From positions 13,660 through 77,659 of the forward strand of contig CAKVHV010000004.1 in assembly GCA_934754475.1 (NCBI GenBank): DNA of 64,000 nt, given 5' to 3'. The notes beneath the pieces are model-generated. The model saw only the letters and a list, made by a program, of their open reading frames with translations. It was not told where the DNA came from and did no database searches. The translations under genes and the position numbers were made by a program. Shown here piece after piece: positions 10,983 to 38,408 of the stretch (positions within the stretch are counted from its first letter, which is position 1; every line of letters begins with the position of its first letter). The DNA comes from an uncultured Clostridia bacterium. GTDB lineage: Bacteria; Bacillota; Clostridia; Christensenellales; UBA1242.

Positions 10983-12005
<1,023 letters not shown>

Positions 12006-19029: not shown

Positions 19030-19272
19030 TTAATTGTTGCCCGAAATTATTTTTTTGATTTCTTTTAGATTAGCAAGTGTTAGTTCCTCGTCAATCTCTC
19101 TATATGCATTTTTGAACGCATTTCTAATTTCTTCTCTCACGTTTGGTTTTTCAAGTGCTATGTCTCTGACTTTTTTTGCAAATGCCAAAACATCTTCTTT
19201 TGTTGTAATATCTACTTCTTTGATAATTCTTTCGATTATTTCAAACTTGTATACATTAGGATTTTTTGCCAT
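19030..19272 (-). CDS. Hypothetical small helical protein (80 aa), last gene of the T4SS-like cluster
   Basis: Intact ORF, Lys/Glu-rich, no TM. Co-directional with and tightly spaced after the 113-aa gene. Confidence 0.6.
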   Translation of the reverse strand: MAKNPNVYKFEIIERIIKEVDITTKEDVLAFAKKVRDIALEKPNVREEIRNAFKNAYREIDEELTLANLKEIKKIISGNN

Positions 19273-19287
19273 AATTAATTCCTTCTT

Positions 19288-19629
19288 TTACTTTTCCAAT
19301 TCTTTATCTAAATTCAAGTACTTTGCTTTTAGTTTTTTAAGAACATCATCTGCTTTTAAAATTTCATTTTCAGTCTTTTCCATTGACTCCAAAGTGCTTG
19401 CCATTTCCGCCAAGTTCTTTTGTTCTTCGGCACTAGGAATACGACCATTGCCATATGCTCTTTCATACTTTTTAAGCAAGTTTTTCATAAAGTTAACATA
19501 AGTCGCACTATATTTGCTTCTCAAAGATTGTTCGATAGACACATCTTGTTCTTCATCTTCCAAACTTTCTAAGAATTTGACGTCCTTGTCATCTTCGCCA
19601 AAAAATTCGTCACTAATAATTTTATCCAT
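19288..19629 (-). CDS. Hypothetical acidic helical protein (113 aa)
   Basis: Intact ORF with GGGGAG RBS and its own consensus promoter upstream. Acidic N-terminus, coiled-coil-like C-terminus. Confidence 0.6.
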   Translation of the reverse strand: MDKIISDEFFGEDDKDVKFLESLEDEEQDVSIEQSLRSKYSATYVNFMKNLLKKYERAYGNGRIPSAEEQKNLAEMASTLESMEKTENEILKADDVLKKLKAKYLNLDKELEK

Positions 19630-19661
19630 AAATATTTCTCCCCATAAATTTGATTATACAT

Positions 19662-19690
19662 ATTTTACACCAAATATATAGTCTTGTCAA
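19662..19690 (-). promoter_or_regulatory. Consensus promoter for the two small genes
   Basis: On the minus strand: TTGACA (19685-19690), 17-nt spacer, TAAAAT (19662-19667). Confidence 0.6.
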
Positions 19691-19709
19691 TATGGGATTT
19701 TAAGGTTTT

Positions 19710-22700
19710 TTAGGAACCCATTTCATTATCTGCTTCAAAGTTTTTTCTTTGTTCTTCCAATTTCTTTTTTTCTTCTTGACTAAGATTATCAGTTTCCACA
19801 GTTTCTTTTGAAGTTTCGTCTTCAATTTTTTCAGATTCTTCGCATGTTGTCACATTATCCGGAGATAATAATTCAGCATTTGCATCTAGTTGGTCAAATG
19901 TTGGTCCATATTTTTTTGAAAATTGAACACATAATTGTGTGATTTTTCCTATCATGCTTGTAAATCTTGCATCATTTGCAATCAACGCTTGAACTTCACT
20001 TGCATTTTCACAATCATTCAAACTCTTCATCATATCATCAGTAATCAAATTGCCTATTTGGCAACCATTAGACCATTCTGTAGTGATTGATATAATAGTG
20101 CCTAGTGCATAAGTACTCATATCCTTAAGCACAGTTGCCACTTCTTGTTTACGACCTTCAAAAGGTCCAGAATTTGGACAATGAGCAATAACTTGTTGAT
20201 ACTTCAATGCACCATTATATGGCATGCCAGTGTTAGCAACTTTTTCTTCAATTGCCTTGCTAATCTCTCTTTTATATGCCTCATAGGCTTTTTCGAGTGT
20301 AACAGCTACACCATATTTAACACCATCTTTATCCATGTCAATTTGTTTATCAGTTATATAGTTAAATACTTCTACTACATCGCCTAATTGTTTTCTTGCT
20401 GTTTCATCTAAATTAGTTAAATTTGTAGAATTCGAACCCAACAAAAGTCCTATTCCCGCCCCCAACAATTTGTATGTATCAAAAGTTTTGTCTGCTATGC
20501 GCAAAAAGTTGCTTGGAGTCTCAGTATTTGCTGTTTTATCTTCTTCCCCACGTGCTTTTTCTTCGTCATTTACATGAGTCTCTTCGGTTTTGCCGTCTTC
20601 AGAGTCAGATTCAGATTTTTCTTCGTCAGGATTTTTGGATTCTTCGTCACCTGCTGTTTTCTCGTCATCAGTTTTTTCTGTATCTGCGGTTTCACCCGAA
20701 TTGTCCGATTTTTCGTCGCTAGGATTAGCGGGGTCAGTCTCTGGAGATGTCTTATCATCGTTAGTATCCAAATTACTTTGGTCATCTGCACCTTTGTCTT
20801 GACTATCTTTGCCATCAGTTCCAGGAGTTTTTGGAGCATCACTTCCGTTTTTTGCTCTCAAACGAGCACGGTCATCTGCAGTAAAACCAAACTGGTCGGT
20901 TACCTTATCTTCTCTAATCATGGTATTCTCTATCATTTTGAGCCAATCATCAATGATTTTTTCAGTTGTTTTTCCGCAATAAGGTTTAAATTTCTTTATC
21001 CAACCAGCAGTATCAAAAGCGGCATTCTTTTGACCATATTTACGCCAAGTGTATTTTTTTGCATCGTCATTTTGTTCTTCTTCGTCATCTTTTTCTTGGG
21101 CGGTTGGGTTACCATTTTTTTCTTGACCTGATATTCCTGACGCTTTTTCTCTTTCGTAATTTTCAATAAATTGTCTCTGTTCAGGAGTCAATTTATTTTC
21201 ATCCATGTTTTTGAGAGCATTATAACGGGAATCAGCTTCTAATTGTTTTTGTAACTTTGTATGTCTGCTAGCTTCTGTTTCTGTTTTTGCCTTGTTTGTA
21301 TATGTATTATTTGTTTTGTCTGTATTTCTGCCTACTTTGTTAACCAAATTAAACAATTCTTCATCACTGAGTGTTTCGATATTCACATTACCATCTGTCA
21401 ATGATTTGTTAACACCATCATTTACAGCCATAGCATAGTCTAATGCTCTATCGTGATTTGCTTTGTAAACATCTCTATTTTTAAATCCGTCACAAGCATC
21501 AACAAATATATCAATATCAAAATTAGGGTCACTAATAGCACCCGAAATCAAACCTTTGATTTCTGGCAATTCTCTTCTTACTTCGTCGGTAAGACCAATT
21601 AGACCATCGTTGTCGATAGCTCGATTGTATAGACCAACGATATCAGCCATTGATTTGTCTGGGAATCTATCTCTAAGCTTTTTTTCAAGTCTTTTGTAAA
21701 CATTATCTTCACTTGATGTATAGATACGTTCAAATCTTCGATAAATATTGTATTTTTCAATCGCTTCGATGATGTCTTGATTATTTTCGTCTTGAGCCAA
21801 GATATTTAAAATATCGTAGTCTTCGAGTTCTGATGCCGATTTCAAGATTTCTTCGGTTTGAGATTGTCTTTTCCCTTTTGAAGGTGTCATTCCCAAGTAT
21901 TCCGCATTTACCGAATTAACTACTTCAGCAAAAGTGCCATTTTTGAAAAACTCTTCAAGTGCTGGATAAATAAACTTAGTATAAGCACCTTCTACGATAT
22001 GGTTCTCACCAAGTTCAAGTTGATAAACACCAGTAGTTGGGTTCATTTTTACATTCAAAAATTCGCAATTGCCAAAGTTTTTCAAAAGAGTGCCGATACT
22101 TTTGGCAACATCTTCTCTACTTAAATCCGGTGTACTTTCAAGTATTTTTTCAATTGCTGTTTTTTGGAAACTTGAAACCAATTGCACTTCGGCTTTGGCT
22201 CTAAGCAATTCGCTATAAAGCCTAGATTGTTCGGGATTAAGAGTAGATACTCCCATATCTCTAAATCTATCTAATTGTTGGTCGTATTCACGCAAAACAT
22301 CAGTTATCTCAGAGTAGCCTTCAAATTGTGTGGCTGATTCAAGATTATGAGCATATGCTACTTCGGTCAAGTCTTCAAGTCTCTTGAGTGTCAAGCCTTT
22401 GAGATATCTATTTGAGCCAAACTCGTCGCCAAGTGCATTTTCAATAATGTCTTGTGCTTGTTCACTTAGTCTATCTCTAAATAGACTAGCTAGTGCTAGT
22501 TTGGTTGCATCAGTTCTAACTTTGGAGTTCTCGGTTAGTTCAAATGCTTTCCATTCGGAACTATCCATATTATAGATTAAATCTGCTTTTTCGATACTAG
22601 CATTTATATCCGACATTTCCTTTCTATAACGGAATCTATCGGCTAAACTAAGTTTTGGTTTTGCAAGTTGTTTGTATAGTTCAAAAATACCTTGAGCGGT

Positions 22701-23501
22701 TATAACTGTTCCATTTCTATCTTCGCCATGAACATTTAGATAATTATCTAGGAAACTTTGGATTTGTTCATTTGGGATTTTGAAAGGTTGAACTTGACCA
22801 TTTTGGTCGTAATATTCAAGACCATTATTATTTTCTTGACTCGAAATTACCCATTGGTCGGTCGATTCGTCAAATTCAAGAGTTGTTCCGCAGAATTTAA
22901 GCGCTCTAACAACTTCCAAATCCATTTGACGTTCACTTTTTTGGTTGATTTGCAAATCGTCTTGTGAAATTAATTTTGCATAAGCATCAAGTCCAAAAGA
23001 GTGCGCTTCATTAGCACCAAGAATGGATTTATCCATACTCTTTAGGCTCTTTGTAATTGCTTCAAAGGCTTTGAGATATTCTTCGTGAACAGTCGCCATG
23101 GCTGGATTACTTAGTTTGTAAGCTTGCGACTCGTATCTTTTGACAATAGCAGTTGCACGGCTCAAAAAGTTAAGGACTTTTTTGAGTTCCTTTGGACTAT
23201 AATTCTTGTAACTATCTTCTTTTAAAAACTCAACGTCTTTTAGTCCAGAAAATTGAGCCATATCCTTGGTTCTATCCACAAAGCTACTTATTGCACCGCC
23301 TACTTTGGCAAGAAGTTCGACTTTGTTGTTTGACCAAGTTGACAATCTATCATATTTAGTGTCTTTTCTGATTTTTTGTCCCAAAGTCGATTCCTTTTCA
23401 CCCAAGTAAAAAGTATCTACTCTATCATAAGTATGCTTTGAATACTTCACCAATTTTTTGAGAAGTTTTTGAGAGTCTAACTCTAATTTTTCTTTTGCCA
23501 T
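19710..23501 (-). CDS. Giant T4SS-associated protein B (1263 aa), function unknown
   Basis: Uninterrupted ORF, AAGGCGG RBS. No signal peptide or TM helix and no catalytic motif recognised. Polyacidic tract near residues 880-980. Shares a ~135-aa module with the 1760-aa protein. Confidence 0.8.
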   Translation of the reverse strand: MAKEKLELDSQKLLKKLVKYSKHTYDRVDTFYLGEKESTLGQKIRKDTKYDRLSTWSNNKVELLAKVGGAISSFVDRTKDMAQFSGLKDVEFLKEDSYKNYSPKELKKVLNFLSRATAIVKRYESQAYKLSNPAMATVHEEYLKAFEAITKSLKSMDKSILGANEAHSFGLDAYAKLISQDDLQINQKSERQMDLEVVRALKFCGTTLEFDESTDQWVISSQENNNGLEYYDQNGQVQPFKIPNEQIQSFLDNYLNVHGEDRNGTVITAQGIFELYKQLAKPKLSLADRFRYRKEMSDINASIEKADLIYNMDSSEWKAFELTENSKVRTDATKLALASLFRDRLSEQAQDIIENALGDEFGSNRYLKGLTLKRLEDLTEVAYAHNLESATQFEGYSEITDVLREYDQQLDRFRDMGVSTLNPEQSRLYSELLRAKAEVQLVSSFQKTAIEKILESTPDLSREDVAKSIGTLLKNFGNCEFLNVKMNPTTGVYQLELGENHIVEGAYTKFIYPALEEFFKNGTFAEVVNSVNAEYLGMTPSKGKRQSQTEEILKSASELEDYDILNILAQDENNQDIIEAIEKYNIYRRFERIYTSSEDNVYKRLEKKLRDRFPDKSMADIVGLYNRAIDNDGLIGLTDEVRRELPEIKGLISGAISDPNFDIDIFVDACDGFKNRDVYKANHDRALDYAMAVNDGVNKSLTDGNVNIETLSDEELFNLVNKVGRNTDKTNNTYTNKAKTETEASRHTKLQKQLEADSRYNALKNMDENKLTPEQRQFIENYEREKASGISGQEKNGNPTAQEKDDEEEQNDDAKKYTWRKYGQKNAAFDTAGWIKKFKPYCGKTTEKIIDDWLKMIENTMIREDKVTDQFGFTADDRARLRAKNGSDAPKTPGTDGKDSQDKGADDQSNLDTNDDKTSPETDPANPSDEKSDNSGETADTEKTDDEKTAGDEESKNPDEEKSESDSEDGKTEETHVNDEEKARGEEDKTANTETPSNFLRIADKTFDTYKLLGAGIGLLLGSNSTNLTNLDETARKQLGDVVEVFNYITDKQIDMDKDGVKYGVAVTLEKAYEAYKREISKAIEEKVANTGMPYNGALKYQQVIAHCPNSGPFEGRKQEVATVLKDMSTYALGTIISITTEWSNGCQIGNLITDDMMKSLNDCENASEVQALIANDARFTSMIGKITQLCVQFSKKYGPTFDQLDANAELLSPDNVTTCEESEKIEDETSKETVETDNLSQEEKKKLEEQRKNFEADNEMGS

Positions 23502-23542
23502 TATTATGACCGCCTTAAATTAATTTTTGTGCATTTTTTAAA

Positions 23543-26500
23543 CTATTGCATATTTTCCAATTTTATTCTATTAAAGTATTGTTCAAAAGCCTTTTGACAA
23601 GACGAAACACCTTCACGATAGAATACGTCACGATTAAGAGCTTTTTGCATATCTGTTGGAGTCTTGAGTCTATTGACTGTTTCGACTACTGTTGAAATAT
23701 TGTCTCCAATTTTGAAGATATTTCCGTTGTTACTTAGGTTAATTGAAGAGAACTTGGCAATAAGGTTTATGCCCAATTCTTCGGAGTTAAGTATATTTGC
23801 TACTTCTTCCAAATTCTTAACAATTTCTGCAAATTCTTCGGTTGCTTCGAGTTCCTTGACAACATAAGCAAATGGACCTAGTTCGTGTTCTTTGTCTATA
23901 ATAAATCTAAACAAATATTGTTCGACAAAGCCCTTGATATTACATCTAATTGTTTGATTGTTAGGAAGTGCAATTTCCAAGTCTTTTTCTTCGCTATCTA
24001 TGCTTGGCAAAGTTCCACAAAGACCCAAAATTTGTCTTAGTTTGTCTACTGTGTCTTGCAAAGAAATATATTTATCGTCCTTGACTGCTTTTTCAAAGCC
24101 ATCATAAATACCCTTGAAAATTACGTCTATGTTTTTGATTTTGATACGTTCTTTTTGTTCTTCTTCTTGAGTTTCATCGTCTTGTTTTTGTTTTTCTTCC
24201 ATAGTTACGACTTTTTCGGTGTTGAGTTCAAAGTACTCAGCCATTTCAAGTTCGTAACCATTTATGTATTCTTTGTCTCTTATTTGAGCAAGCAAGGTTG
24301 TTCTTAATTCCTTTTTCTTGTCGGCAAAGAACTCTTCGAGTTCAGGGCAAACAATTCGTTTGTCTTCGCCATACTTTTCAAACAAGTCGTTTAGAGCAAA
24401 GTACATAAATAATCTTTCGTAGTGTTCGATTTCTTCGATTGAACTATAAATTTCTGGATGTGGATTAACCAAGTCTTCACTCATTGTATTAAAGCCACTT
24501 TCCAAAGTTTCAATAGTTTCCTTCTTTTCGTCAGTAGTTTTTCTATCAAAACTATTTGATTCCATAAGCATACGATTGATATAAAGCATTCGATTGAAAT
24601 ATAGCGATGCGTCGTCATTAATTGCATCAATAAAGTCGATATATCTTTCGCATCTTGACATCATAACATTACGAATAACCGAAGTGATTTCAAGTCTAAC
24701 GTCTTCGCTCAAATCACTAAAGTATGAATTAATCTTACTTAAACTCAAAATATCTTTTTCATAAAAATCTTCTTTGAGATGAGTTTTGTCTTTTTCAAGA
24801 GCATACTTTCTTCCAAAGGCAAGTAGTAATGCAAAATCAAGAAGTCTTGTTTTGTCTAGTACAAAGCCCGGACGAACGTACCATTTGTCGTCGTCGTAGT
24901 TGTAATTTGCTTCGTTTTCGTCACGTTTTTCTTTTTCCTTGCTAGCAAACTTAACCAAAGGAACTATTGGAGTTTTGGTTTCTTCGTACAAAACTGTTGC
25001 TTTGACGTCAATTTTTTCTCTTAATGCGTCAACCAAGTTTTCCATAAACTTGACACCCGAAGCCAAATAATATGGTTTGAGTTTTAGTAGCAACTTGTTG
25101 TAACCCCCATTGAATTTGTAGAGTACTCCAAATAGATTTGTTACATCACTCTTCAAATCCATATCTTCGTTTCGAGTTGTAACGATGTCGTTTTGCTCGT
25201 AAGATAGAACTTTGTTAAACTTGATATTTGTATCGGCATTTTCTTTTTGTTTAAAGTATATGCTACGTGGATAAGTACCAAGTCCACTATCCTTGTTATC
25301 TTCGTTTTGAATGATGACATTTTGACCTTTGATAGAAAAACTCAAATAGTCAAGTAGTCTGCTTTGGATTTGTTCTTTGTCAATCTTAACTGTTGGAATT
25401 TCGTTGTTTTCGATACGAGTAATAAGCGAACTTACATAAGTTTGTTTCATCTTGCTGGAATATTCTTCGTAAGTGCGTCTAACGTTTGCATCAGCCGAAA
25501 TTGTCTTGACAAGGGTTGCAATCAACTCACAACTCTTGATAACACCAGACTTAATTTTTTCTGGAACATATGATTCCAAATCGCCTTGGAATTTGTGTTC
25601 TATCAAATCTTTGAGTAAATCAAAATTAACCGAACTTATCAAATCGTTATAGTCACTAATTACAATATCAAGCATATTTTGTGGAACATACTTGGTCAAG
25701 AATTTTCTTAAATCAGATTTGTAATCAAACACAGCCAAATTGCTATCAAGAGTGCTAAGACCAGATTTTGCCATAGCATTTTTGACATAACGAATGTGCA
25801 TATCGGATATGATTTGTTCTGGGGTTTGGATTTGTGCTTTTTTGGTCTCCAAATATGAGTACAAGATATTGTTGTTTGTGAGCAACAAGAATTTGTATCT
25901 ATCATAAGTTGCATAGTCTTCCAAGTAATTTCCGTATGTGGTTACACCTTTGTTTTCAAATCCAACAACAAACGGAATAACACAAGGCTCAATTCCTTCG
26001 CTGAATGTATCAAAAGCCTGATAGTCTCTATTATACATTGGAACATTTGGAACTTGCATACTAGGCATCATGTAGCCCATTGGAGCAATTCCAACAACTC
26101 CGGTTGGAGCGCCCATGCCTACAACTCCCGGCATAGCACCAACTACACCACCAACTTGATTGCCACCAATAGGAGCAGTTTGATTAAATTGAGAGCCACC
26201 ATTTGAATTAGAACCGCTAGGTGCTGTAGCCCCTGCATTGCCATTAGCATTTGTATTTGAATTTGTTGGAGTAACACCGCCATTTGAAGCACCCGCACCA
26301 GAAATATTGTTTTGACCAAAATTGCTTGGGGCTTTTTTGGCATAAGTCTCTCTAGTTGGAAGTTCGTCGTTGTTTCCAAGAATAATAGGAGATGCACCAC
26401 CAACTGTTCCAATACTTCTAGCAAAAGTTGGTGATTTTGCAAACTCAGTGCTTTCGCCTAGGTTATTTAGTACTCCCACACCACCTGCATTGCCGACAAT

Positions 26501-28825: not shown

Positions 28826-28885
28826 GTGTGCGTTAGTCTTAAGAAATACTACTTTCCCAGCATACTAACATACTTATACATGTTT

Positions 28886-28914
28886 AGTTTACCACACTTG
28901 AGTTGTTTTTACAA
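28886..28914 (-). promoter_or_regulatory. Promoter for the giant-protein genes
   Basis: On the minus strand: TTGTAA (28909-28914), 17-nt spacer, TAAACT (28886-28891). Same -10 hexamer as the pilin-like gene promoters. Confidence 0.5.
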
Positions 28915-28948
28915 ATTTTTTAATATATAAATATATTAAAATACAAAA

Positions 28949-29012
28949 AAACCAACGATATTTTTAGGTCAAAACCCCCAAAGGAATTGGTTGTTTTTGA
29001 AATCGTTGGTTT
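28949..29012 (-). terminator. Terminator/attenuator after virB4
   Basis: 11-bp stem aaaccaacgat / atcgttggttt with a structured ~42-nt loop, followed on the minus strand by TTTTTTGTATTTT. Confidence 0.55.
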
Positions 29013-29018
29013 GATTAA

Positions 29019-31703
29019 TTAAATATTTGAGTTGAGTGCTGTCAGATAATTTGGATTATTAAACAAGTCTTTGGTTACATTCAACGCTTCGATTTGAACG
29101 GTTGTTCTGTTCATAGGTCCAGTAATTAAGAAACACTGACCACGACGAGCGGTAACTATGGAGTTCTGCTCTTCGGTGTTGATACCACCGGCATTACGAT
29201 AAAGTGTAATCAAGTCATTAATATCGGCTGGTGCCAAGGACATGATAATTGAGTACTGACAAGCATTAATAACTGCTGTACTTTGTTGGGCAATTTCTTC
29301 GGAGCCTACAAAGTCTTTGATATTCTGTGTAATGATAATTTGCATACCATTATATTTACGAATACGTTTAGCCATTTGCGCCATAAAGTCTAGCGCTATA
29401 GGGAATTTTTTGTTAATGAATACGTGTGCTTCATCAACCGCAACTATAATTCTTCGGTGGTCTTCTTCGAGTTCTTGGTCGGCAAAGTACTTCAAGTTAA
29501 AGTCACGGTTTTTGATAATTTCACTATCCAAATATTTAAATACCAAAAGCATCTGCGCATTGGCAATAATATCGTTACGGTTAGATATAAGTGAACGGAA
29601 CGAGAAACAACAGAAATTTTCGTTGGTCTTAATGGATGTATAACCATTCCATAGGTTGGAGTTACGTCCACCTGTTCCGAATTTCTCAATAAACATACGT
29701 ACTGTTTGTAGGTTTTTGAGATGGTATTCATTGGTTTCAGTTTCTAGTTTACTGTCAACAAGTGCTAACATATCGTCAAAAATTGGGAAGTCGGATGCTT
29801 GAAGGTCGGCGATATTAACACCAGAGTCAATACCCTTTGACCTATAAAGTTCGGCAGTAAGTGAGTTAAGCATTTCAAACGCATCGGTATTAATTCCCGG
29901 CAAAATCAGTCTATAAAATTGCTCCATAAACTGCAAGTGTTCAGCAAAGTCATCAGATGCTTGACCTTCTTCGGATTCAAGTGTTGCATAGATGTGGAAT
30001 GGATTGAATATACCATTTGTCGAGTTACCAACGTCTATTATCTTTCCACCTAGATTGTGACAAAGTATTTCGTACTCGTTTTCTGGGTCAAGAATAAATA
30101 TACGTGTATTATCCGCTGCAAAGTTTGTAAGCAAGGTCTTGGTACAATAAGATTTACCCGAACCAGACTTACCTATAATCATCATGTTTGAATTAACTCT
30201 TTCGTTGTTACGTGCAAAGAAGTTTGCAAATACTGGATATTGGTTGTAACCTATATAAATTCCCCTTTCGTCGTGCAATGTAGTTGAGATAAATGGGAAA
30301 CATGCAGCAAGCGAACTGGTTTGGATTCCACGTCCATATTGTTTGGAAAGTTTGTCCAAACGAGAAATATTACTAGATATAAATCCGTCGACTTGTCTTG
30401 CAAAGTTTTCGGCATACTTAAAGCCATTTTGTCTTAGTATCGCTCTAACTTCCTTTTTAACAGATTCTTTGGCTACAATGTGAACGGTCGTATTAAACAA
30501 TTGTTCATTTGCACCCTTGATACCTTTGAGCAATTCTTTGAGTGTATCTACGTGGTTTTGCACTTCGATTTTCATAGATGCTCTTAGGTCTTTTTGTAAT
30601 CTATTTTCCATTTCCATAAGAGACTTATCTAGGTCTTTTTCGGCTTTGTATCTATCAATTGGGCTAATATTAACCACAACTCTACTTTCATCCAAAGCAA
30701 ATATTGGATATGCCCAAGCATTAGGCACTTCAATAGGATAATCTGTTACACTAAATATTCTAAAAGTTTCACCGTCAATCTTGGTGGTTTTAAGACCAAA
30801 TTTAACTTCGTCTGGGTATACCCAGCTTGGTTTTTCCTTGATAGGTATAAGTTCAATTTCCCTTTCGTCAAAGTCTGTACAAAAGGTAGATTTCATAAAT
30901 ACATACAAGTCATCACCAGTAATAATGTTTGTATAAATTGGTGCAACCGAACTTTCCAAAGTTGCAACTATACCATTAATAGTATTATTAAGTGCATCTC
31001 TATCTGTATCATATACGACAATATAATAGTGGTCTTTGATAATCTTTTCGGTGTGGTTCATGTAGTTGATTGCCTGCAATCTCTCTTCGAATACCGGCGC
31101 ACGACTATCAAGCTCTTCCTTGGAATAAAGTCCCCTATCTGCCATGTCTTGCAAGGTATTATAACGATAGTCTTCGTAACTTGCCATGTTGTCAAGTAGC
31201 ATAGGTTTTTTGGTCTTGACAATTGACATTTGTTGGGTTAGATTTAGACGTTGTATTGCTTGCGAAAAGCAATTAATAACCATGTTTTGTCTATCTTCGG
31301 CGAGCAAGCCAAACGACATAGGAAATATCTCAACAACCATTCCATAATAATCACCAAATTTAAGAAATTTATCGGTGTTCAAATCGTCAAATGGCATGAT
31401 GTTTTTGATGTTTGTATTGCCTTTGTCTTTCTTGCTATACTTTTTGTGGTATGCCAAGTATCTAAAACTTAGAACCAAGGCAAAATACAACCTAATTCCG
31501 TCACCCATTTCAAAGAATAGCATTATCCACAATGCCAAAAAGAATACTGCCAAATATATATTGTATACAAGTTTGTCAAAAATGTTTGTGGTCACAAGTG
31601 CAACAGCAATTCCCGCACCCACAAGCATTAGCAGTACATCAAATATTGTAAAATTTCTAAAAACCGTAGTTTTTACTTTGGTTTTTCTTGGAATAAATCT
31701 CAT
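29019..31703 (-). CDS. virB4: VirB4/TraE-type T4SS ATPase with N-terminal membrane anchor
   Basis: 894 aa. Two N-terminal TM helices, Walker A IIGKSGSGKSY, Walker B IIVAVDEAHVF. GGAGAA RBS. Confidence 0.85.
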   Translation of the reverse strand: MRFIPRKTKVKTTVFRNFTIFDVLLMLVGAGIAVALVTTNIFDKLVYNIYLAVFFLALWIMLFFEMGDGIRLYFALVLSFRYLAYHKKYSKKDKGNTNIKNIMPFDDLNTDKFLKFGDYYGMVVEIFPMSFGLLAEDRQNMVINCFSQAIQRLNLTQQMSIVKTKKPMLLDNMASYEDYRYNTLQDMADRGLYSKEELDSRAPVFEERLQAINYMNHTEKIIKDHYYIVVYDTDRDALNNTINGIVATLESSVAPIYTNIITGDDLYVFMKSTFCTDFDEREIELIPIKEKPSWVYPDEVKFGLKTTKIDGETFRIFSVTDYPIEVPNAWAYPIFALDESRVVVNISPIDRYKAEKDLDKSLMEMENRLQKDLRASMKIEVQNHVDTLKELLKGIKGANEQLFNTTVHIVAKESVKKEVRAILRQNGFKYAENFARQVDGFISSNISRLDKLSKQYGRGIQTSSLAACFPFISTTLHDERGIYIGYNQYPVFANFFARNNERVNSNMMIIGKSGSGKSYCTKTLLTNFAADNTRIFILDPENEYEILCHNLGGKIIDVGNSTNGIFNPFHIYATLESEEGQASDDFAEHLQFMEQFYRLILPGINTDAFEMLNSLTAELYRSKGIDSGVNIADLQASDFPIFDDMLALVDSKLETETNEYHLKNLQTVRMFIEKFGTGGRNSNLWNGYTSIKTNENFCCFSFRSLISNRNDIIANAQMLLVFKYLDSEIIKNRDFNLKYFADQELEEDHRRIIVAVDEAHVFINKKFPIALDFMAQMAKRIRKYNGMQIIITQNIKDFVGSEEIAQQSTAVINACQYSIIMSLAPADINDLITLYRNAGGINTEEQNSIVTARRGQCFLITGPMNRTTVQIEALNVTKDLFNNPNYLTALNSNI

Positions 31704-31788
31704 TTTTTATTCTCCATTTTTCATATGTGCATATGCACATAAATTTTTATGAATAGTTGGGAAAATCCCAACTATTCATTAATTTAAA

Positions 31789-34434
31789 TTATTTGCCAAG
31801 TGTATTTTTAAGTTCTTCCAAAGCTTTGTGAAGTTCAGATAACAACTTAGCATTACCTTCTTGACCCCACTTCTTGAGTTGGTCTTGAAGCATAGATTCA
31901 AGTTCACTTGCCTTAGCATTTTTCTTAATAGCGTCTGCCAAACTCTTTTTGAAGTCTTCCAATCCATCAAAATGCACTTGATATTCGGATTTGTTCTCTA
32001 CATCAAATTTTCCACCAGTTGGAGCAACGATATTCGAATTCAAAGCACGCATTTGATTAATATAGTATTTTGCACCATCTTCATCACCATGTTCTTTTGC
32101 CTTATTAAATGCTACAGCTAATTTATCTAATTGTTTATTCAAATCTTGATTTGCAATTTCAACTTTTTGAACCAATGCAGTTTGAATCATTTGAGCTTGT
32201 TGTGTTCTTTTTTCTCCTATCCAACCTGCATTACGTTTGTTGTAAGCTGCTTCCGCCTTGTCTGCTTTAGCTTTGGCAGCATTATCTAACATCTGTTTGC
32301 CTTCAGGACTAACACTATTGGCATCAGTATAAGCCTTTTGATATTGTTCAGGTATTTTTTGCATCGAACTAGGTGCTAACGCTTTCCATGCTGCACCAAA
32401 ACCAAATGTATTGTTAATAGTATCTCCTGCCATTTTTCTTAATGCTTCGCCAGCCATATGTCGTTTTGCAGCTCTATTGACAGATTTTTCTTTAGATTTT
32501 TTATCTTCTTCTTGATAATAATCGTCTGTTAGTAAAGCTCTCTTTGCCTTTTTGTTTCCACTTTCTTCTATCTCTTTTCTCGCTGAATTTTTAGCATCGG
32601 ATTTATTCTTTAATTCTCTTCGAGAACCTATAACATCATTACGTGCGTTTTCAACCGCGGCGACTTGGTCTTTATACTCTTGACTATCCTTAGTATATAC
32701 GTTGTCAGCTTCCATCTGTTTTAATTTATCACTTTCTTCCCTAAATTTACTTTCATTTGCTGTCACATTCTTCTTGGCAACTGATTCTTCGTCAGCAGCT
32801 GTTTGATATTTTTGATACTCTTCGGAATTCCTACCACCTTTGTTGATTTTTTTACCTACCCATCGTGCACCCTTATCAATAGCATCAATTCCTTTACCAG
32901 GCAATCCTACAACTGCATCAACTCCTTTTCTAATACCGCCACCAACTTTGTCTGCAAGTCTTCCAGCTGCACCGCCTGTAAGTTTATTAGCAAGACCACC
33001 TGCTCCTTTGGCTGCACCAAGTGCAAGTTTTCCGGCACCCATGGCAACACTACCGCCTACTGCAACTGCTTTTTGTAGGCCTGCTGTGGCTTCTTTGGCT
33101 AGACCTGCACCATCGGCTGCAGCATTGCCACCACCAAAGTAACTACCCATATCGCCTGCGAGTTTTTCAATCATTAAACATCCTACAATTACCATAAGAG
33201 ATTTAACAAGTCCAACCATAAATGAATTTGGGAATGGGAGTGCTGTAAAGTCTCCAGTGAATGTAATATCAATTTCGAGCATTACTCGAACAATTGTAAA
33301 GAATATATTCATGGATATGACTATTCCATAGGCAGATAATGCCTTAGACATAAAGCTACTTCGCCATGAGCCAAGGTTATCTTTGACTGGCGCCATACCG
33401 ACCGCCAGTGGCATGACAATAAATAATGCTGTACACCTATACAATCTATCAATCATTCCAAAACAGCAGTTAAATAAACATTTTAGAATCAAACACCCTG
33501 CAAAGATTAAAACAAGATAATTTACTTCAAATGGATTGTAAAATTTGACAACCGCATTAAGGTCGGAATATTTTAATGTCACCCCCGCCATAAAGTTTTC
33601 TTCAATAAAGACTCTATTTGAAGGGTCTCCTAGTTTCACACTTTCCATTAAGGATTTCTCATCGCTATCAAATAGTTCTCTCAACCCCATCGTAAATCCT
33701 TCGGTAATCGCCAACGACACTCCCGCTCCGATTAATTCGCCAGCATTAGCACCATCACCAAAATCAACTCCGATTTCTTCGAGTGCTTTTGCAAGTGTCC
33801 CTGGTTCTTTAAGCATTGCAGTACTAGCGGATGTTACCCAAAGGCAACCACTAATTCTAGCATTTTCACCACCACCAGTGGCTGTGTCAATTAACTCCAA
33901 AACTTGGTTTCCAATAAATACACCAAGCACAACCATAATAGGTATCATTAGCATGTTTACAAGAGCCTTGAAAGATTTGTTGAGAATAGTAGTTTTTGAA
34001 TTGTTTGCACCTTCAGTCGTATACTCGACTTTTACGATTTGGAATACCGTTGTAATCATAAGTAGGAATATTCCGACAATTGCACAAGCAAAGAATACAT
34101 CAAGAACATCTTTGTGCGTAATAAATTGCAATAGCAAGTCGCCACTTTTTCCATTGAGTGAAAATTCGGCTCCCATAGTTCCATTATTACTACTAAGTCC
34201 CGCCAATGCTCTAAACAGCACTTCTACAAAGTCAATAAGTTTGAGAATAAAAACAGACAATTCGTAAAATAATGCAGCGCCAAAATACTGAATAACAGTT
34301 ATTACAACTTGCAAAAGAACCTTAATAACTGGCACAAGTATATTTTGAATAAGCGTACTAAAAACAAAATTAAGAACCTTGTTAAGCAATTCGCCAAGTC
34401 CCGAAAGGAGTCCTAACATTCTAGATATTCCCAT
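31789..34434 (-). CDS. VirB6/TrbL-like polytopic membrane protein with Gly/Ala linker and long coiled-coil tail
   Basis: 881 aa. About 450 aa of multiple TM helices, a GGGNAAADGAG...GGAAG linker, then ~350 aa rich in Lys/Glu/Ala/Asn. AGGAGA RBS. Confidence 0.65.
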   Translation of the reverse strand: MGISRMLGLLSGLGELLNKVLNFVFSTLIQNILVPVIKVLLQVVITVIQYFGAALFYELSVFILKLIDFVEVLFRALAGLSSNNGTMGAEFSLNGKSGDLLLQFITHKDVLDVFFACAIVGIFLLMITTVFQIVKVEYTTEGANNSKTTILNKSFKALVNMLMIPIMVVLGVFIGNQVLELIDTATGGGENARISGCLWVTSASTAMLKEPGTLAKALEEIGVDFGDGANAGELIGAGVSLAITEGFTMGLRELFDSDEKSLMESVKLGDPSNRVFIEENFMAGVTLKYSDLNAVVKFYNPFEVNYLVLIFAGCLILKCLFNCCFGMIDRLYRCTALFIVMPLAVGMAPVKDNLGSWRSSFMSKALSAYGIVISMNIFFTIVRVMLEIDITFTGDFTALPFPNSFMVGLVKSLMVIVGCLMIEKLAGDMGSYFGGGNAAADGAGLAKEATAGLQKAVAVGGSVAMGAGKLALGAAKGAGGLANKLTGGAAGRLADKVGGGIRKGVDAVVGLPGKGIDAIDKGARWVGKKINKGGRNSEEYQKYQTAADEESVAKKNVTANESKFREESDKLKQMEADNVYTKDSQEYKDQVAAVENARNDVIGSRRELKNKSDAKNSARKEIEESGNKKAKRALLTDDYYQEEDKKSKEKSVNRAAKRHMAGEALRKMAGDTINNTFGFGAAWKALAPSSMQKIPEQYQKAYTDANSVSPEGKQMLDNAAKAKADKAEAAYNKRNAGWIGEKRTQQAQMIQTALVQKVEIANQDLNKQLDKLAVAFNKAKEHGDEDGAKYYINQMRALNSNIVAPTGGKFDVENKSEYQVHFDGLEDFKKSLADAIKKNAKASELESMLQDQLKKWGQEGNAKLLSELHKALEELKNTLGK

Positions 34435-34685
34435 TTTCCATTTCTCCTAAAAAATATTCCAAAAGTAATGCACTCAAATATACTTAAAAACAAACCAAAT
34501 CTTAAGATAGTCTGAAAGATTATTTAGGCACACTTACTTAGATTACATAATATATATATTTATCTTATCCTATTTCGACAAAAAAAACAAATTATTTTAA
34601 TATTATTTTTAATAATATTTTATTAATGTCATCAAATCTCGTAAAATCTAAAGTGCACTTTAATTTTAACGGAACACAAGTTCAC

Positions 34686-34722
34686 AAAAAAAGACAAGAA
34701 TTAAATTTCTTGTCAGTTTTTT
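34686..34722. terminator. Terminator after pilin-like gene 1
   Basis: gacaagaa / ttcttgtc stem flanked by an A7 run and a T6 run. Confidence 0.7.
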
Positions 34723-34820
34723 GTTTTATTGAAAATCTAAGATGCAAAATTCTAATGTTAAATCAAATTATTAATACAAAATCAAATAGTCTAATAAAAA
34801 TTCAAAACATTAATTTTTGC

Positions 34821-35150
34821 TTAGGCATCAGCACCTTTCATATATCCAAACATTTGTGGAATAAGCGAATCCCACTGGATAGCATAGCATAGCGTTATCA
34901 AAAGTATCAAAACTATTGCACCAATGAGAGTATTAATCATTCTTTTTTTGTTTTCGGCACGTTTTTCGTCACTCTCAGACTTTGCATACTGAACACCAAG
35001 AAAGATTACATAAATGATTGCAAACAAGCCAAGCACACTAAGACATGGACCTACAATGTTTTCCAAAACTTGATTAACTTTAGCCGCAGTTTGACCAAGC
35101 CTATCGTAGCTTGCCAAAAGTCTTGACATATTAAGCAACAAATTCTTCAT
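34821..35150 (-). CDS. VirB2/TrbC-topology pilin-like protein, paralog 1
   Basis: 109 aa from ATG 35150 (GGAGAG RBS). N-terminal leader-like segment, two hydrophobic helices split by the charged loop YAKSESDEKRAENKKR. Clear paralog of 35434-35793. Confidence 0.7.
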   Translation of the reverse strand: MKNLLLNMSRLLASYDRLGQTAAKVNQVLENIVGPCLSVLGLFAIIYVIFLGVQYAKSESDEKRAENKKRMINTLIGAIVLILLITLCYAIQWDSLIPQMFGYMKGADA

Positions 35151-35181
35151 ATTACTCTCCAAAATATTTTTACTTACACAA

Positions 35182-35210
35182 AGTTTATTAAAAAAATTGG
35201 TTTTAGTCAA
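35182..35210 (-). promoter_or_regulatory. Promoter of pilin-like gene 1
   Basis: On the minus strand: TTGACT (35205-35210), 17-nt spacer, TAAACT (35182-35187). Near-identical to the promoter of paralog 2. Confidence 0.6.
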
Positions 35211-35250
35211 CTAATTTTATATGGGTACAAACGATTTTGTAGCATTAAAC

Positions 35251-35288
35251 ACAAAAAAATCCTGCTTGGCTTAGAAAAAAGCAGGATT
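35251..35288 (-). terminator. Terminator after pilin-like gene 2
   Basis: aatcctgctt / aagcaggatt stem followed on the minus strand by a T-run. Confidence 0.7.
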
Positions 35289-35433
35289 TAAAACCACATA
35301 GAATTGGGGTATGTAACAAGCATAAACCAGCTGCGAACATATAAAAAGCTAATCTATGCCTAACTGCTACACGTTTTATCTATGAAGTTTCCAAAAAAGT
35401 ATAATATCCGAGTTTACGGGATTTTTTAATTTA

Positions 35434-35793
35434 TTATGCAGTCCATTTGTTGAAGCCACTAACAATTGAACCCCAGTCAAGAGCATAACATAGAGCAGCA
35501 CCAGCAACGATAATTACGCCACCAATAACTGCACCAATTAGTCTTCCTTGAACTTCTTTACGTTTAGAAGCGTCTTCTGCTCTAGCATATTGAACACCAA
35601 GATAAATTGCATAACCAATTGCAGCAATACCTAGTACTGTGAATATTGGACCCATTACCCAGTTAAATATTTTGTTTACACCTTCAACAACATCTGTTAT
35701 ATCTGTTATTGTACCTTTGTCCCTAACAGGGTCTTCTCTCAAAACATTATTACCAGTAACAGCCATTGCTAATTTAAATAAAAAGTTTTTCAT
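35434..35793 (-). CDS. VirB2/TrbC-topology pilin-like protein, paralog 2
   Basis: 119 aa, GGAGAA RBS. MKNFLFKLAMAVTG leader-like N-terminus, two hydrophobic helices split by YARAEDASKRKEVQGR. Shares GP..VLG..AI.Y.I.LGVQYA...LIGA...LCYA..W.S with paralog 1. Confidence 0.7.
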   Translation of the reverse strand: MKNFLFKLAMAVTGNNVLREDPVRDKGTITDITDVVEGVNKIFNWVMGPIFTVLGIAAIGYAIYLGVQYARAEDASKRKEVQGRLIGAVIGGVIIVAGAALCYALDWGSIVSGFNKWTA

Positions 35794-35833
35794 TTTTTCT
35801 GTTCTCCGTATTTTTTTATTTTAACTTACCCAA

Positions 35834-35862
35834 AGTTTATTAAAAAATTCGTGTCAAGTCAA
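35834..35862 (-). promoter_or_regulatory. Promoter of pilin-like gene 2
   Basis: On the minus strand: TTGACT (35857-35862), 17-nt spacer, TAAACT (35834-35839). Confidence 0.6.
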
Positions 35863-35978
35863 CTAAAATTATGTAGTTTTTGCAAAAATATGTAAAATTT
35901 TTTGATTTTGTGTACATTGATTGCCAAAAATAGATTATTTTGAATATAAAAATTTTTGTGGTAATCTTGTGCTAGTGT

Positions 35979-36007
35979 TTGACACAACTAGCAAAAATAT
36001 ATATACT
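35979..36007 (+). promoter_or_regulatory. Promoter of the coupling-protein gene
   Basis: TTGACA (35979-35984), 17-nt spacer, TATACT (36002-36007). The -35 box sits inside the palindrome GCTAGT-N10-ACTAGC (35971-35992). Confidence 0.55.
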
Positions 36008-36102
36008 ACTAATGAAATTTGTATATATTTAATACAAAAATATCTTGTATATTTAAGTAAAAATTATTTTTGTGTATGGCACAAAAAGATAAGGATGGAA
36101 AA

Positions 36103-38157
36103 ATGGCAGACAAGAAAAAAGATGAAGCGAGTTTTGGAACTAAATTCAAAAAAATATTTGGTGCATTTATATTTTGCCTAATTGGTGTAGTAATAGGTTC
36201 GTATATAATTTCTAGTTTTTTTGCATTTGGAACACTCAAGATTGGAAATTTTGGTGAAATATTTGCTAATCAGCAATTTAAGTCAATATTTATGATAATA
36301 TCTCTAATTGCACTTGTTGTAATGTTAATTATGTTTAGCAATCACGCATTCAAGTTTAACGAAAAGCCAAAAGCCAAGGTTGAGACCAAGGGTGGAATAT
36401 CCAAGTATTATGATACACACTGGATAACCAACGAAGAACTCAAGACCAACCCAGACTTTAAATTCCACTACTACGAAGACTTGCATAGGTCGGACAACAT
36501 TGGTATTCCAATTAGAGCGGAACTAATTAACGGGCGACTTAATGTCAACATGTACAAGCCAATTCACACACTTGTAATTGGTACAACTGGTGCTGGTAAA
36601 ACTACACAGTTTATTGACCCAACCGTTCAAATACTTAGTGAATCTCATGCTAAGCCTTGTATAGTTGTAACCGACCCTAAGGGTGAAATTTATGACAACC
36701 ACAGCGAGAAACTCAGAAAGAATGGATACCGAGTACTTACATTTGACTTGAAAGAGCCATTTAAGAGTGCATGCTGGAATCCGATGACGAGAGCATATGA
36801 ACTCAATGAGCGAGCAATGAATCTTAATCGTGAAGTTGTTGTTCACCACAATGATGACCCAAGAGACTTTAGCCTAAAGTGTGTAAGTCAAGTATACTAT
36901 GGCGAATGGTACGAATTTGACGGATTTGCATTTTCGGATATACAAACACTTAATTCACACCAAGCATCACTTAAGCAAATTCTCAAGACCGAAGCATTTG
37001 AAGAACTCAAAGATATAGCATCGGTTTTGTGTCCAATTGAAAGTAGCCAAGACCCTATTTGGGACAGGGGCGCTAGAGACTTGGTTTTGGGAACAATGCT
37101 TGCGATGCTTGAAGACAGCGAAAATCCTGAACTTGGGATGACCAAGGACAAATTTAATTTTTATAACTTAGCACAGATTTTGGCACTCAAAGACAATGAT
37201 GCCTACAACCCATTCAAGACTTTGACCGAATATTTCCAAGGCAGAGACGAACACAGCAAAGCCACACAACTAGCCAATCAAGTACTCACCAATGCCGACA
37301 AGACCAAGATGTCTTATATGGGTATTGTTGCAAATCGTATGGGTTTGTTTAGTGATATGGGTGTATGTTATGCCACATCAGTAAACGAAATGGACCTTAA
37401 GACATTCACCGACCAGCCTACTGCTATATTTATCAAAATCCCTGATGAAAAGACTACCCGTCACCCAATTGCTACAATGTTTGTATCGCAATTATACAAA
37501 ATACTAGTTGATGTAGCCAACAAACGTGGCGGTGAACTACCAAAAACCGTATACTTCCTACTAGATGAATTTGGTAACATGCCTAAGATTGAAAACTTTG
37601 AAACAATTATTACTGTTGCTAGATCTCGTAAGATATTCTTTACATTAATCTTGCAATCATATGCACAGCTTACCATTAAGTATGGTCAAGACGTAAGTGC
37701 GACTGTCAAAGACAACTGTAACATTCATATATTTATCGCATCCAACGATGACGGAACTAAGGAAGAATTTAGTAAACGTTGCGGTAACATTTCTGTTGAG
37801 ACCGAAACCACATCTGTTAGCAAGGGTGGCGAAGAAGGTGCGAAAGAAAGCAAGTCTGTCAACGTTCAACTTGACACTCGTCCACTTATTTATCCAGCCG
37901 AACTTGGAGCGCTCAAACCTAACTCTGGTGAATGTATAGTTTCAATTCTTCAACGTAACCCAATTAGAGCGGTATTCACTCCTAGTTACAAGTGTTCGGT
38001 TTATGATATGTCCAAAGCCCCTGCCGACAACAGTCTACCTAATCAGCTTGACGAAAGCAAGGCTTACTACGACATTCGTATCCGTAATCAAAAGGTTCTC
38101 AGAAAAGCTCCCGCTAATCCAAATGGTGGTAGCAATAACAACCCATTTGATTTCTAA
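36103..38157 (+). CDS. virD4: VirD4/TraG-type T4SS coupling protein
   Basis: N-terminal TM helices, Walker A IGTTGAGKTT, Walker B VYFLLDEFGNMP. The tracked ORF starts at TTG 36070; ATG 36103 has the best RBS (AAGGA plus 7 nt); ATG 36076 is also possible. Confidence 0.85.
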   Translation: MADKKKDEASFGTKFKKIFGAFIFCLIGVVIGSYIISSFFAFGTLKIGNFGEIFANQQFKSIFMIISLIALVVMLIMFSNHAFKFNEKPKAKVETKGGISKYYDTHWITNEELKTNPDFKFHYYEDLHRSDNIGIPIRAELINGRLNVNMYKPIHTLVIGTTGAGKTTQFIDPTVQILSESHAKPCIVVTDPKGEIYDNHSEKLRKNGYRVLTFDLKEPFKSACWNPMTRAYELNERAMNLNREVVVHHNDDPRDFSLKCVSQVYYGEWYEFDGFAFSDIQTLNSHQASLKQILKTEAFEELKDIASVLCPIESSQDPIWDRGARDLVLGTMLAMLEDSENPELGMTKDKFNFYNLAQILALKDNDAYNPFKTLTEYFQGRDEHSKATQLANQVLTNADKTKMSYMGIVANRMGLFSDMGVCYATSVNEMDLKTFTDQPTAIFIKIPDEKTTRHPIATMFVSQLYKILVDVANKRGGELPKTVYFLLDEFGNMPKIENFETIITVARSRKIFFTLILQSYAQLTIKYGQDVSATVKDNCNIHIFIASNDDGTKEEFSKRCGNISVETETTSVSKGGEEGAKESKSVNVQLDTRPLIYPAELGALKPNSGECIVSILQRNPIRAVFTPSYKCSVYDMSKAPADNSLPNQLDESKAYYDIRIRNQKVLRKAPANPNGGSNNNPFDF

Positions 38158-38212
38158 AAATTTGACACAAAGTAATTTTATAAATTCTATTTTAATATTG
38201 TTTAGGAAACAC

Positions 38213-38247
38213 AAAAAAACTTTACCAAGCTTGGTAAAGTTTTTTTA
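38213..38247. terminator. Terminator after the coupling-protein gene
   Basis: Perfect palindrome ctttaccaagcttggtaaag flanked by an A7 run and a T7 run. Confidence 0.8.
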
Positions 38248-38318
38248 ACGCCAATGTTTTATTAATATAACATACTAAAGTATCGAGTGAGTGTTTATTT
38301 GTAACATTACTAACTAAA

Positions 38319-38408
38319 GTATCGGTTGAGTACTCGAAAAAATTTTTGCTAAGGCTTCGGCTTCGCCTGCAGAAATCGCAAAAATCTTTTTCTGTGTCTT
38401 CCCGATAC
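38319..38408 (+). repeat. Structured repeat element, copy 1
   Basis: Outer stem gtatcgg / ccgatac. Conserved internal blocks GAGTACTCG and CTGTGTCTTCCC. A 14-bp A/U-rich inner stem (38336-38349 / 38378-38392, one bulged C). UUCG-capped tip. Confidence 0.55.

Follow-up and report, generated by a model that had tools for sequence, protein, structure and literature searches.

A relaxase-less type IV secretion-like locus with VirB2-like pilins and giant orphan proteins in uncultured gut Clostridia

In Saccharibacteria, a chromosomal, relaxase-less and pilin-bearing type IV secretion system (T4SS) of the monoderm kind is essential for epibiotic growth (PMC12102498, PMC12857230), and this essentiality is independent of DNA uptake (PMC12857230). 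VirB2 pilins have been stated to be absent from Gram-positive T4SSs, Patescibacteria excepted, and reviews consider relaxase-less, chromosomal and pilin-bearing T4SSs in single-membrane bacteria to be unique to Patescibacteria (both PMC12857230, PMC12102498). The established role of the type IV coupling protein (T4CP) is the recruitment of cytoplasmic substrates (PMC12857230). A minimal T4SS is encoded by the integrative and conjugative elements (ICEs) of Mycoplasma and other Mollicutes (MICE), in which CDS5 is VirD4, and CDS15, CDS16 and CDS17 correspond to the pilin-like Mbov_0395, the VirB6-like Mbov_0396 and the VirB4 protein Mbov_0397, followed by Mbov_0398 and Mbov_0399. Canonical Gram-positive T4SSs of the MPF_FATA class comprise Prg/Pcf of pCF10, Con of ICEBs1 and CD1110/CD1115 of CTn2 from C. 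difficile. Here we describe a nine-gene T4SS-like cluster at positions 19030-38157 of a 64,000-nucleotide stretch of DNA (the window) from an uncultured Clostridia bacterium (contig CAKVHV010000004.1, assembly GCA_934754475.1). With it, the design known from Patescibacteria now appears in Clostridia, where the VirB4 subfamily of the cluster reaches at least 509 species-level genomes, from the guts of human, ruminant, rabbit, deer and chicken hosts, in a scan of one genome per GTDB species. The cluster is most likely a Firmicutes counterpart of the Patescibacteria T4SS that is related to the Mollicutes ICE machinery.

On balance, we favor the interpretation that the cluster is a domesticated, chromosomally fixed and vertically inherited T4SS for contact-dependent interaction with other cells rather than for self-transfer. 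It would derive from a Mollicutes-ICE-like branch of monoderm conjugation machines and would have been retained as a core organelle by uncultured animal-gut Clostridia (Christensenellales-type metagenome-assembled genomes (MAGs), including UBA1242). The families of the components are known, and single genes of these MAGs already bear labels from the NCBI annotation pipeline; in the full-text literature that we searched, we found no description of the system, of its lineage-wide fixation or of its giant companion proteins. Beyond an initial annotation of the window made from the sequence alone, the present analysis adds the phylogenetic breadth of the system, its two-speed evolution, the paralogy of its giant proteins and the parallel with Patescibacteria.

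Recognizable T4SS components and their transcription units

The virB4 gene (29019-31703, minus strand) encodes an 894-amino-acid (aa) ATPase, which over residues 5-881 matches NF045975, the NCBIfam equivalog model for Mbov_0397 of the Mycoplasma ICE, at 597.9 bits (cut-off 590). It also matches PF19044 (2.7e-18), and its C-terminal half aligns with a solved VirB4 domain (PDB 4AG5, 5e-38). The clostridial CD1110 model aligns at 4e-44 and yields 151 bits against a cut-off of 325. Two N-terminal transmembrane (TM) helices, which anchor the ATPase in the membrane, form a fused VirB3-like double-TM segment. The Walker A motif GKSGSGKS is intact in all 80 homologues compared and the VAVDEAH motif in 79, the remaining sequence being cut by a contig end. 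When 72,556 plasmids were searched by tblastn, full-length relatives were found only in Mollicutes (a Mesomycoplasma ICE and Spiroplasma plasmids), at ~25% identity. Divergent from the other eight genes, virD4 (36070-38157, plus strand) encodes a 695-aa protein that probably starts at the ATG at 36103. With matches to PF02534 (4e-53), PF12696 (1.4e-32) and PF10412 (7e-26), 305 bits to the CD1115 family model NF045973 (cut-off 250), a match to Cag5 in the PDB (3.8e-6) and two N-terminal TM helices, it is unambiguously predicted to be the coupling protein.

Additional mating-pair-formation parts adjoin virB4, namely the fused VirB3-like segment, a VirB6-like protein and two PF18895 pilins. The VirB6-like protein (31789-34434, minus; 881 aa) passes the models of the Mbov_0396/MMCAP2_0566 families over residues 50-440 (NF045848, 98 bits, cut-off 90; NF045889, 71.5 bits, cut-off 70). 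Hydropathy places ~7-8 hydrophobic segments in its TM domain of ~440 aa. Next come a Gly/Ala linker and ~380 aa of hydrophilic tail rich in Lys, Glu, Ala and Gln; this tail has no Pfam or NCBIfam match even at E values up to 10. Pilins A and B contain two TM segments each and pass the T4SS_pilin model PF18895 (cut-off 26.6) with 37.7 bits (2.2e-9) and 28.0 bits (2.4e-6), respectively. In the 'pilin-like' Mbov_0395 model NF045849 (cut-off 40), pilin A passes with 47.5 bits and pilin B stays below with 35.6. A search with the pilin profile returned only proteins from within the lineage among the 120 matches listed. Typing with hidden Markov models (HMMs) thus agrees with the initial annotation, which had called the VirB4, VirD4, VirB6 and VirB2 components (NF045975, PF02534/NF045973, NF045848/NF045889 and PF18895, respectively). 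Its suggestion of Mollicutes ICEs as an analogue has turned into a family relationship, in that the Mbov_0395/0396/0397 set is the closest by NCBIfam and has the same gene order. The two pilins, which it had taken for paralogues, are 33% identical to one another and both pass PF18895.

An open reading frame (ORF) map of the window recovers eight genes on the minus and one on the plus strand exactly where the initial annotation had placed them between two terminators, and all nine ORFs are intact. On the minus strand, an intrinsic terminator at 19024-18996, which is also an inverted repeat (12-bp stem with five G-C pairs and a T-rich tail), follows the 80-aa protein gene g80 (19030-19272), and a bidirectional terminator (38212-38247, both strands), with a perfect 17-nt palindrome between A and T runs, lies 3' of virD4. 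Between the pilin genes and virB6 lies a third terminator (34714-34693, minus), with an 8-bp stem and a TTTTTTT run. Both pilin genes, for pilin A (34821-35150, minus) and pilin B (35434-35793, minus; 119 aa), are preceded by a copy of a 56-nt promoter/leader repeat, detected in a direct-repeat search. The copies lie at 35165-35220 (TTGACT-17-TAAACT, promoter-like site 35210-35182, minus) and at 35817-35872 (promoter-like site 35862-35834, minus), are 82% identical and each come with a GGAG ribosome-binding site. From this arrangement, the ATG at 35150 is the most likely start of pilin A (109 aa); the mechanical ORF reaches up to a TTG at 35210 (129 aa). A hairpin with a T-run, read directly from the sequence, is found at ~35250-35290, 3' of the pilin B gene. 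As each pilin gene has its own promoter/leader repeat and terminator, the two form separate transcription units, which are probably strongly expressed. The genes virB6, virB4, g1760, g1263, g113 and g80 appear to read as one long operon, closed by the terminator after g80. Further promoter-like sites precede virD4 (35979-36007, plus; TTGACA-17-TATACT, 11 of 12 positions, a consensus match only) and g113 (19690-19662, minus; TTGACA-17-TAAAAT).

Distribution, chromosomal residence and rates of evolution

The best 80 VirB4 matches (50-95% identity) come nearly all from animal-gut MAGs, which NCBI labels as Clostridia, Clostridiales, Christensenella, Catabacter or Ca. Caccovivens. The last of these belongs to the family UBA1242 in the GTDB order Christensenellales (PMC8035907). 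UBA1242 genomes are smaller than 1 Mb and their bearers are presumed to be partner-dependent; their description makes no mention of a T4SS (PMC12306168). Loci for synteny comparison were retrieved via VirB4 itself and fall into three types. Type A comprises 11 species plus one fragment, with VirB4 79-95% identical and with the arrangement and flanks of the window: caATP-tmk-thyX, divergent virD4, two to three pilin genes, virB6, virB4, g1760, g1263, in some loci g113, then g80 and TM2-mnmA. The caATP-tmk-thyX side is seen across all 11 species and TM2-mnmA where the locus extends far enough (L001, L006 and L011). In type B (13 loci, VirB4 50-67% identical), one to four pilin genes are followed by virD4, virB6, virB4, an unrelated large protein (335-1872 aa, without signal peptide in five of five inspected), g80 and then fba. 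One type-B locus with a VirB4 of 53% identity (L049) has fba, a 291-aa protein, a peptidase M29, gap, TM2 and mnmA next to the cluster, the same genes as those at 6369-12005 and 17323-18863 of our window. Type C (~24 loci including Caccovivens, VirB4 ~51% identical) has fba ~3.5 kb away.

VirB4 identity tracks housekeeping identity across the loci. The initial annotation had called for a synteny comparison; in 11 sister species, the block is indeed flanked by the same core genes, and at 50-67% VirB4 identity it lies in the same neighbourhood. That the same housekeeping neighbourhood persists down to ~50% VirB4 identity argues for ancient chromosomal residence and vertical descent. Precise presence or absence of the block together with att repeats and a recombinase, the pattern that had been named as the mark of an ordinary ICE, is not shown by these loci, which were retrieved by VirB4 and are therefore not an independent sampling. 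When metagenomes were scanned with ThyX for relatives without the cluster, the only contig retrieved came from the same species and ended before virD4.

Large surface proteins recur next to this VirB4 family. In type C (L060:12751-22688 and ~23 further loci, L042-L079), virB4 stands by itself next to the gene of a giant protein, which continues past the end of the retrieved locus at more than 3300 aa. This protein has a lipoprotein signal with the lipobox FVGC, abundant Ser, Thr, Asn and Tyr, and no Pfam domain. In another sub-lineage (L018:1-9644 and L021), a 3214-aa protein with an N-terminal signal/TM segment and the Listeria-Bacteroides repeat PF09479 is encoded on the minus strand upstream of virB4, divergent to it.

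In the ORFs of at least 100 aa that we scanned across the window, we found no relaxase, integrase, transposase or DDE domain, and no mobility gene within the 19-26 kb on either side of the cluster. Over the cluster and the same flanks, no single-stranded DNA-binding protein (SSB) or primase was found. The window contains no tRNA gene, and direct or att-like border repeats do not exceed chance-level matches of 17-47 nt. GC content, GC content at third codon positions and codon usage are host-like, with relative synonymous codon usage (RSCU) correlating at r = 0.95 between cluster and housekeeping genes (0.98 in a split-half control). These results uphold the earlier statements that the cluster and its flanks lack a relaxase, integrase or transposase, flanking repeats, a tRNA and a compositional break (chance-level repeats only, RSCU r = 0.95), and that its neighbours are core genes, thyX, tmk and mnmA among them. 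All ORFs scanned around the cluster are either housekeeping genes or of unknown function. They include translation and nucleotide genes (leuS, pheS, pheT, nrdD, trxB, thyX, tmk, mnmA and a nucleoside hydrolase gene), gap, fba, P-type ATPases and the envelope genes uppS and glycosyltransferases.

The components evolve at two speeds. We compared the cluster with the nearest species representative (L004), for which synonymous divergence (dS) is saturated (>1.2), so that between-species dN/dS is indicative only and within-species values are more reliable. The 80-aa protein g80 has the lowest nonsynonymous divergence (dN) of the cluster (0.018; 96% aa identity), followed by VirB4 (0.035; 95%) and VirD4 (0.054; 92%). 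These three are more constrained than the housekeeping enzymes ThyX (0.126; 82%) and Tmk (0.223; 72%). The giant protein g1760 reaches a dN of 0.14 (81% identity). Pilin A (0.31; 60%), pilin B (0.35; 53%), the VirB6-like protein (0.55; 44%, with 50% in the TM half and 38% in the tail), g113 (0.74; 33%) and g1263 (0.80; 28%), which include the membrane or exposed parts, diverge much faster, their dN being 9-23 times as high as for VirB4. A contig from the same species (L084, 92.6% nucleotide identity) encodes a VirB4 C-terminus of 100% identity, next to 95.4% for g1760 and 92.9% for g1263. The corresponding dN/dS values are ~0 for VirB4 (a 111-codon segment only), 0.07 for g1760 and 0.17 for g1263, next to 0.02-0.07 for housekeeping genes on another same-species contig, and mark both giants as functional genes. 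Strain-level cassette switching of g1263 was considered and rejected on account of its 92.9% identity in the same-species contig; g1263 is simply less constrained rather than switched.

Several neighbouring features deserve mention in their own right. The spacer between virD4 and thyX (38250-38940) measures 690 nt in the window and 129-282 nt in the sister species L001 and L004, and a same-species contig (L081) has 258 unrelated nucleotides in place of positions 38425-38900. It contains a 30-nt tandem repeat (38263-38331) and a GC-rich stretch (38786-38870) and shows no ORF homology; no Rfam family matches this spacer or the remainder of the window. ThyX (38940-40103, minus) is 387 aa long, with a Thy1 domain confined to residues 26-170 (weak, E 5e-14), and most type-A sisters have a ThyX of 387-388 aa or similar; the protein is a long and divergent ThyX whose C-terminal half is uncharacterized. 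A 711-aa fusion protein (12304-14439, minus) joins an N-terminal arginine-deiminase/amidinotransferase fold (PF02274, PF19420) to a C-terminal pyridoxal phosphate-dependent ornithine/arginine decarboxylase (PF02784, PF00278) and would lead from arginine to polyamines in a single polypeptide, an unusual route. NrdD, the anaerobic ribonucleotide reductase (45547-47913, minus), has a C-terminal glutaredoxin domain in the same polypeptide. A 111-aa ORF (6024-6359, minus) aligns with the inorganic pyrophosphatase profile (153 positions) over positions 31-111 only and may be a truncated or mis-started ppa. The window also contains a class-II fba (6369-7298) and a ROK-family glucokinase-like gene (48164-49153).

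Giant and small proteins without a known family

Downstream of virB4, the minus strand encodes the giant proteins g1760 (23543-28825; 1760 aa) and g1263 (19710-23501; 1263 aa), followed by g113 (19288-19629; 113 aa) and g80, the last gene of the long operon. None of the four has a Pfam or NCBIfam match, even at E values up to 10. Both giants lack a signal peptide and TM helices. In g1760, low-complexity linkers are found at aa 100-200 (acidic) and aa 800-930 (rich in Gly, Asn, Ala and Pro), and g1263 contains acidic disordered stretches at ~aa 780-1000. By hhalign, residues 213-731 of g1760 align with residues 97-533 of g1263 over ~400 residues (probability 98.9%, E 1e-17), with a second block at 86%, and BLASTP relates the two at E 2e-9. 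By these alignments, the giants are collinear paralogues. AlphaFold2 predicts g1760 segments 200-800 and 930-1760 with a mean predicted local distance difference test (pLDDT) score of 80 each, and the models suggest a mostly alpha-helical protein of long helices and helical bundles with small beta modules. Searched with Foldseek, as the initial annotation had proposed for the undescribed proteins, these segment models have no match with E < 0.1 in the PDB or BFVD, and PDB sequence searches with g1760, g1263 and a profile of g80 gave chance-level matches only.

The giant-protein family comprises 46 clusters in a search of 5.8 billion proteins, and an exhaustive phmmer search of 1.84 billion representatives found 10 relatives; on these searches, the giants are restricted to a narrow clade. 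Homology to the large proteins 3' of VirB4 in types B and C (335-1872 aa and the lipoprotein of >3300 aa, respectively) was rejected with an hhalign probability below 1%, and homology to Mbov_0398/0399/0400 of the Mycoplasma ICE was likewise rejected, the giant-family HMMs giving no matches. The earlier statement that more than half of the coding capacity has no described function is reinforced, as the giants are without detectable sequence or fold relatives outside this clade. The two small proteins had both been described as acidic, which holds for g113; g80 is charge-neutral. The helical g80 is conserved in sequence and recurs in an unchanged position in 16 type-A and type-B loci; it is a candidate adaptor for the ATPases. 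Absent or unrecognizable in most sister loci, g113 can be put forward only as a candidate chaperone or partner of g1263.

A putative contact-dependent machine and its relation to known systems

In the working model that we favor, the VirB6-like protein, VirB4 and VirD4 would form a translocon in the cytoplasmic membrane, and the pilins, made in excess from their own promoters, would build a fibre or conduit through the wall. VirD4 would recruit cytoplasmic substrates and VirB4 would power their export toward another cell. The most probable substrates, or distal parts of the machine, would be g1760 and g1263, two co-transcribed helical giants devoid of a Sec signal, with g113 and g80 as possible adaptors. 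By analogy with the relaxase-less T4SS of Saccharibacteria, the machine could deliver or display lineage-specific cargo on a partner or host cell. The tight linkage and high conservation of VirD4 imply recruitment and export of cytoplasmic substrates, and an extracellular fibre is suggested by the VirB2-like pilins, which are duplicated, evolve fast and have promoters of their own. The giants are proposed as cargo on the basis of their position, their lack of a Sec signal, the rate at which they evolve and their replacement from one sub-lineage to another.

Several observations weigh against this model. Neither a VirB1-like wall hydrolase nor a VirB8-like protein was found, which leaves wall crossing unexplained, and the organism appears to be walled (uppS, glycosyltransferase and epimerase genes at 55991-61777 of the window; SpoVT in one relative). 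The giants could instead be cytoplasmic scaffolds or unrelated passengers, and a relaxase could be encoded elsewhere in the genome, beyond the window. In type C, no pilin, VirB6 or VirD4 gene lies within 10 kb of virB4, so that the full machine may not be universal; type-C genomes may have lost or relocated most of it. The link of this genome to UBA1242 and to genome reduction is indirect: the metabolic survey of UBA1242 reports fructose-bisphosphate aldolase (FBA) and glucokinase as missing (PMC12306168), and the window has both fba and the ROK kinase-like gene. Either the genome belongs to a neighbouring family or the survey missed these genes.

The cluster might still be a DNA-transfer machine, that is, a chromosomally encoded conjugation or chromosomal-transfer system of the Mycoplasma or mycobacterial distributive kind, exchanging chromosomal DNA with a relaxase encoded elsewhere or by relaxase-independent initiation. 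The nearest relatives of VirB4, VirB6 and the pilins are indeed Mycoplasma ICE proteins, whose systems mediate chromosomal transfer (PMC12857230), VirD4 has the complete architecture of a DNA-transfer T4CP including TraG-D_C, and conservation across the lineage would suit a recombination benefit for small genomes. However, a relaxase, DDE recombinase, SSB and primase are all missing from the cluster and the 19-26 kb around it, the giant orphan proteins are left unaccounted for, and fast divergence in the pilins, VirB6 and g1263 would be an obstacle to mating between species-level relatives, if not necessarily within a species. We regard DNA transfer, the main rival reading, as rather unlikely. 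That every recognizable gene belongs to a conjugation family could also mean that an ordinary or decaying ICE has integrated at this locus by chance, yet the window has no integrase, relaxase, att repeat or tRNA target, codon usage is ameliorated, the flanks are the same in 11 species with deep synteny, and nine intact ORFs with within-species dN/dS of ~0.0-0.17 include ATPases more conserved than thyX and tmk. A chance ICE remnant is therefore highly improbable.

Import rather than export has to be considered as well. The H. pylori ComB system, a known uptake T4SS, works without a coupling protein. A ComB-like competence system, or an import channel by which an auxotroph takes up nucleotides or macromolecules, would suit the neighbouring nucleotide salvage and synthesis genes (thyX, tmk, nrdD and a nucleoside hydrolase gene) and the reported lack of standard transporters in UBA1242 (PMC12306168). 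Unlike in ComB, VirD4 is adjacent here and among the most conserved genes, and with a conserved coupling protein import fits poorly. Moreover, the nucleotide-gene adjacency is conserved in the type-A clade only, and the Saccharibacteria T4SS is essential for reasons other than DNA uptake (PMC12857230). Uptake thus appears improbable, if less so than a chance ICE. Returning to the contact-dependent export machine, a bolder version of it would hold that a large, uncultured gut Firmicutes clade, like Patescibacteria but independently of them, made a pilus-bearing T4SS of ICE origin its indispensable 'lifestyle' organelle, one that injects clade-specific giants of novel fold into partner cells or displays them there. 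This version is possible but doubtful. If it were true, these bacteria would be contact-dependent epibionts or parasites in the animal gut, and VirB2-type pili would be ancestral to a branch of monoderm T4SSs rather than a candidate phyla radiation (CPR) oddity. In any case, the cluster offers a molecular handle on a possible dependence upon other cells among poorly understood gut lineages, the reduced-genome UBA1242 among them; the one metabolic survey of this family had no more than a guess at 'hypothetical membrane proteins' to offer (PMC12306168). With confidently predicted, unmatched folds, the giants are candidate substrates of a Gram-positive T4SS, of which very few are known.

We compared the cluster to the three groups of described systems. 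The canonical MPF_FATA T4SSs share with it the core of VirB4, VirD4 and VirB6, and its VirD4 passes the CD1115 model. In contrast, its VirB4 scores far below the CD1110 cut-off (151 versus 325 bits), it has VirB2-like pilins, and we found in it no relaxase, no hydrolase of the PrgK/CwlT/TcpG type, no VirB8-like protein of the PrgL/ConB/TcpC type and no LPXTG adhesin. MICE are closer. The VirB4, VirB6-like protein and pilin A of the cluster pass the Mbov_0397, Mbov_0396/MMCAP2_0566 and Mbov_0395 models, and the gene order is the same, with a pilin-like protein, a polytopic TM protein, a VirB4 with two N-terminal TM helices and a large protein. In an annotated Mycoplasma element, a 290-aa and then a 1220-aa protein follow 3' of VirB4. 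VirB1-like and VirB8-like parts are found neither in the cluster nor in MICE (for MICE, PMC12857230), and the kinship extends to the T4SS of Spiroplasma plasmids. The cluster differs from MICE in that identity is only ~25%, in the absence of a DDE recombinase, ICE ends and other ICE genes, in its fixed chromosomal position conserved across the lineage and in its standard genetic code. Its VirB6-like protein has an extra ~440 aa (Gly/Ala linker and hydrophilic tail), its giants lack the signal and TM anchors of Mbov_0399, and its host appears to be walled.

The Patescibacteria (CPR) systems, exemplified by Southlakia epibionticum ML1 and Nanosynbacter lyticus TM7x, belong to another phylum; TrsD, PrgI/VirB3 and peptidoglycan hydrolases are typical extra components of their loci. 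As a rule their T4CP is unlinked, and in ML1 it is not essential, whereas in our cluster VirD4 is adjacent and highly conserved. VirB4 in our cluster also carries the VirB3-like segment as a fusion and is followed by giant orphan proteins. On the other hand, both are chromosomal, have no associated relaxase and show affinity to monoderm conjugation machinery (PMC12102498, PMC12857230). Both have tandem divergent VirB2-like pilins detected by PF18895 (as defined in PMC12102498), and both occur in bacteria known or proposed to depend on other cells. The cluster thereby links the Mollicutes ICE machinery with Firmicutes and, possibly, with the origin of the CPR system.

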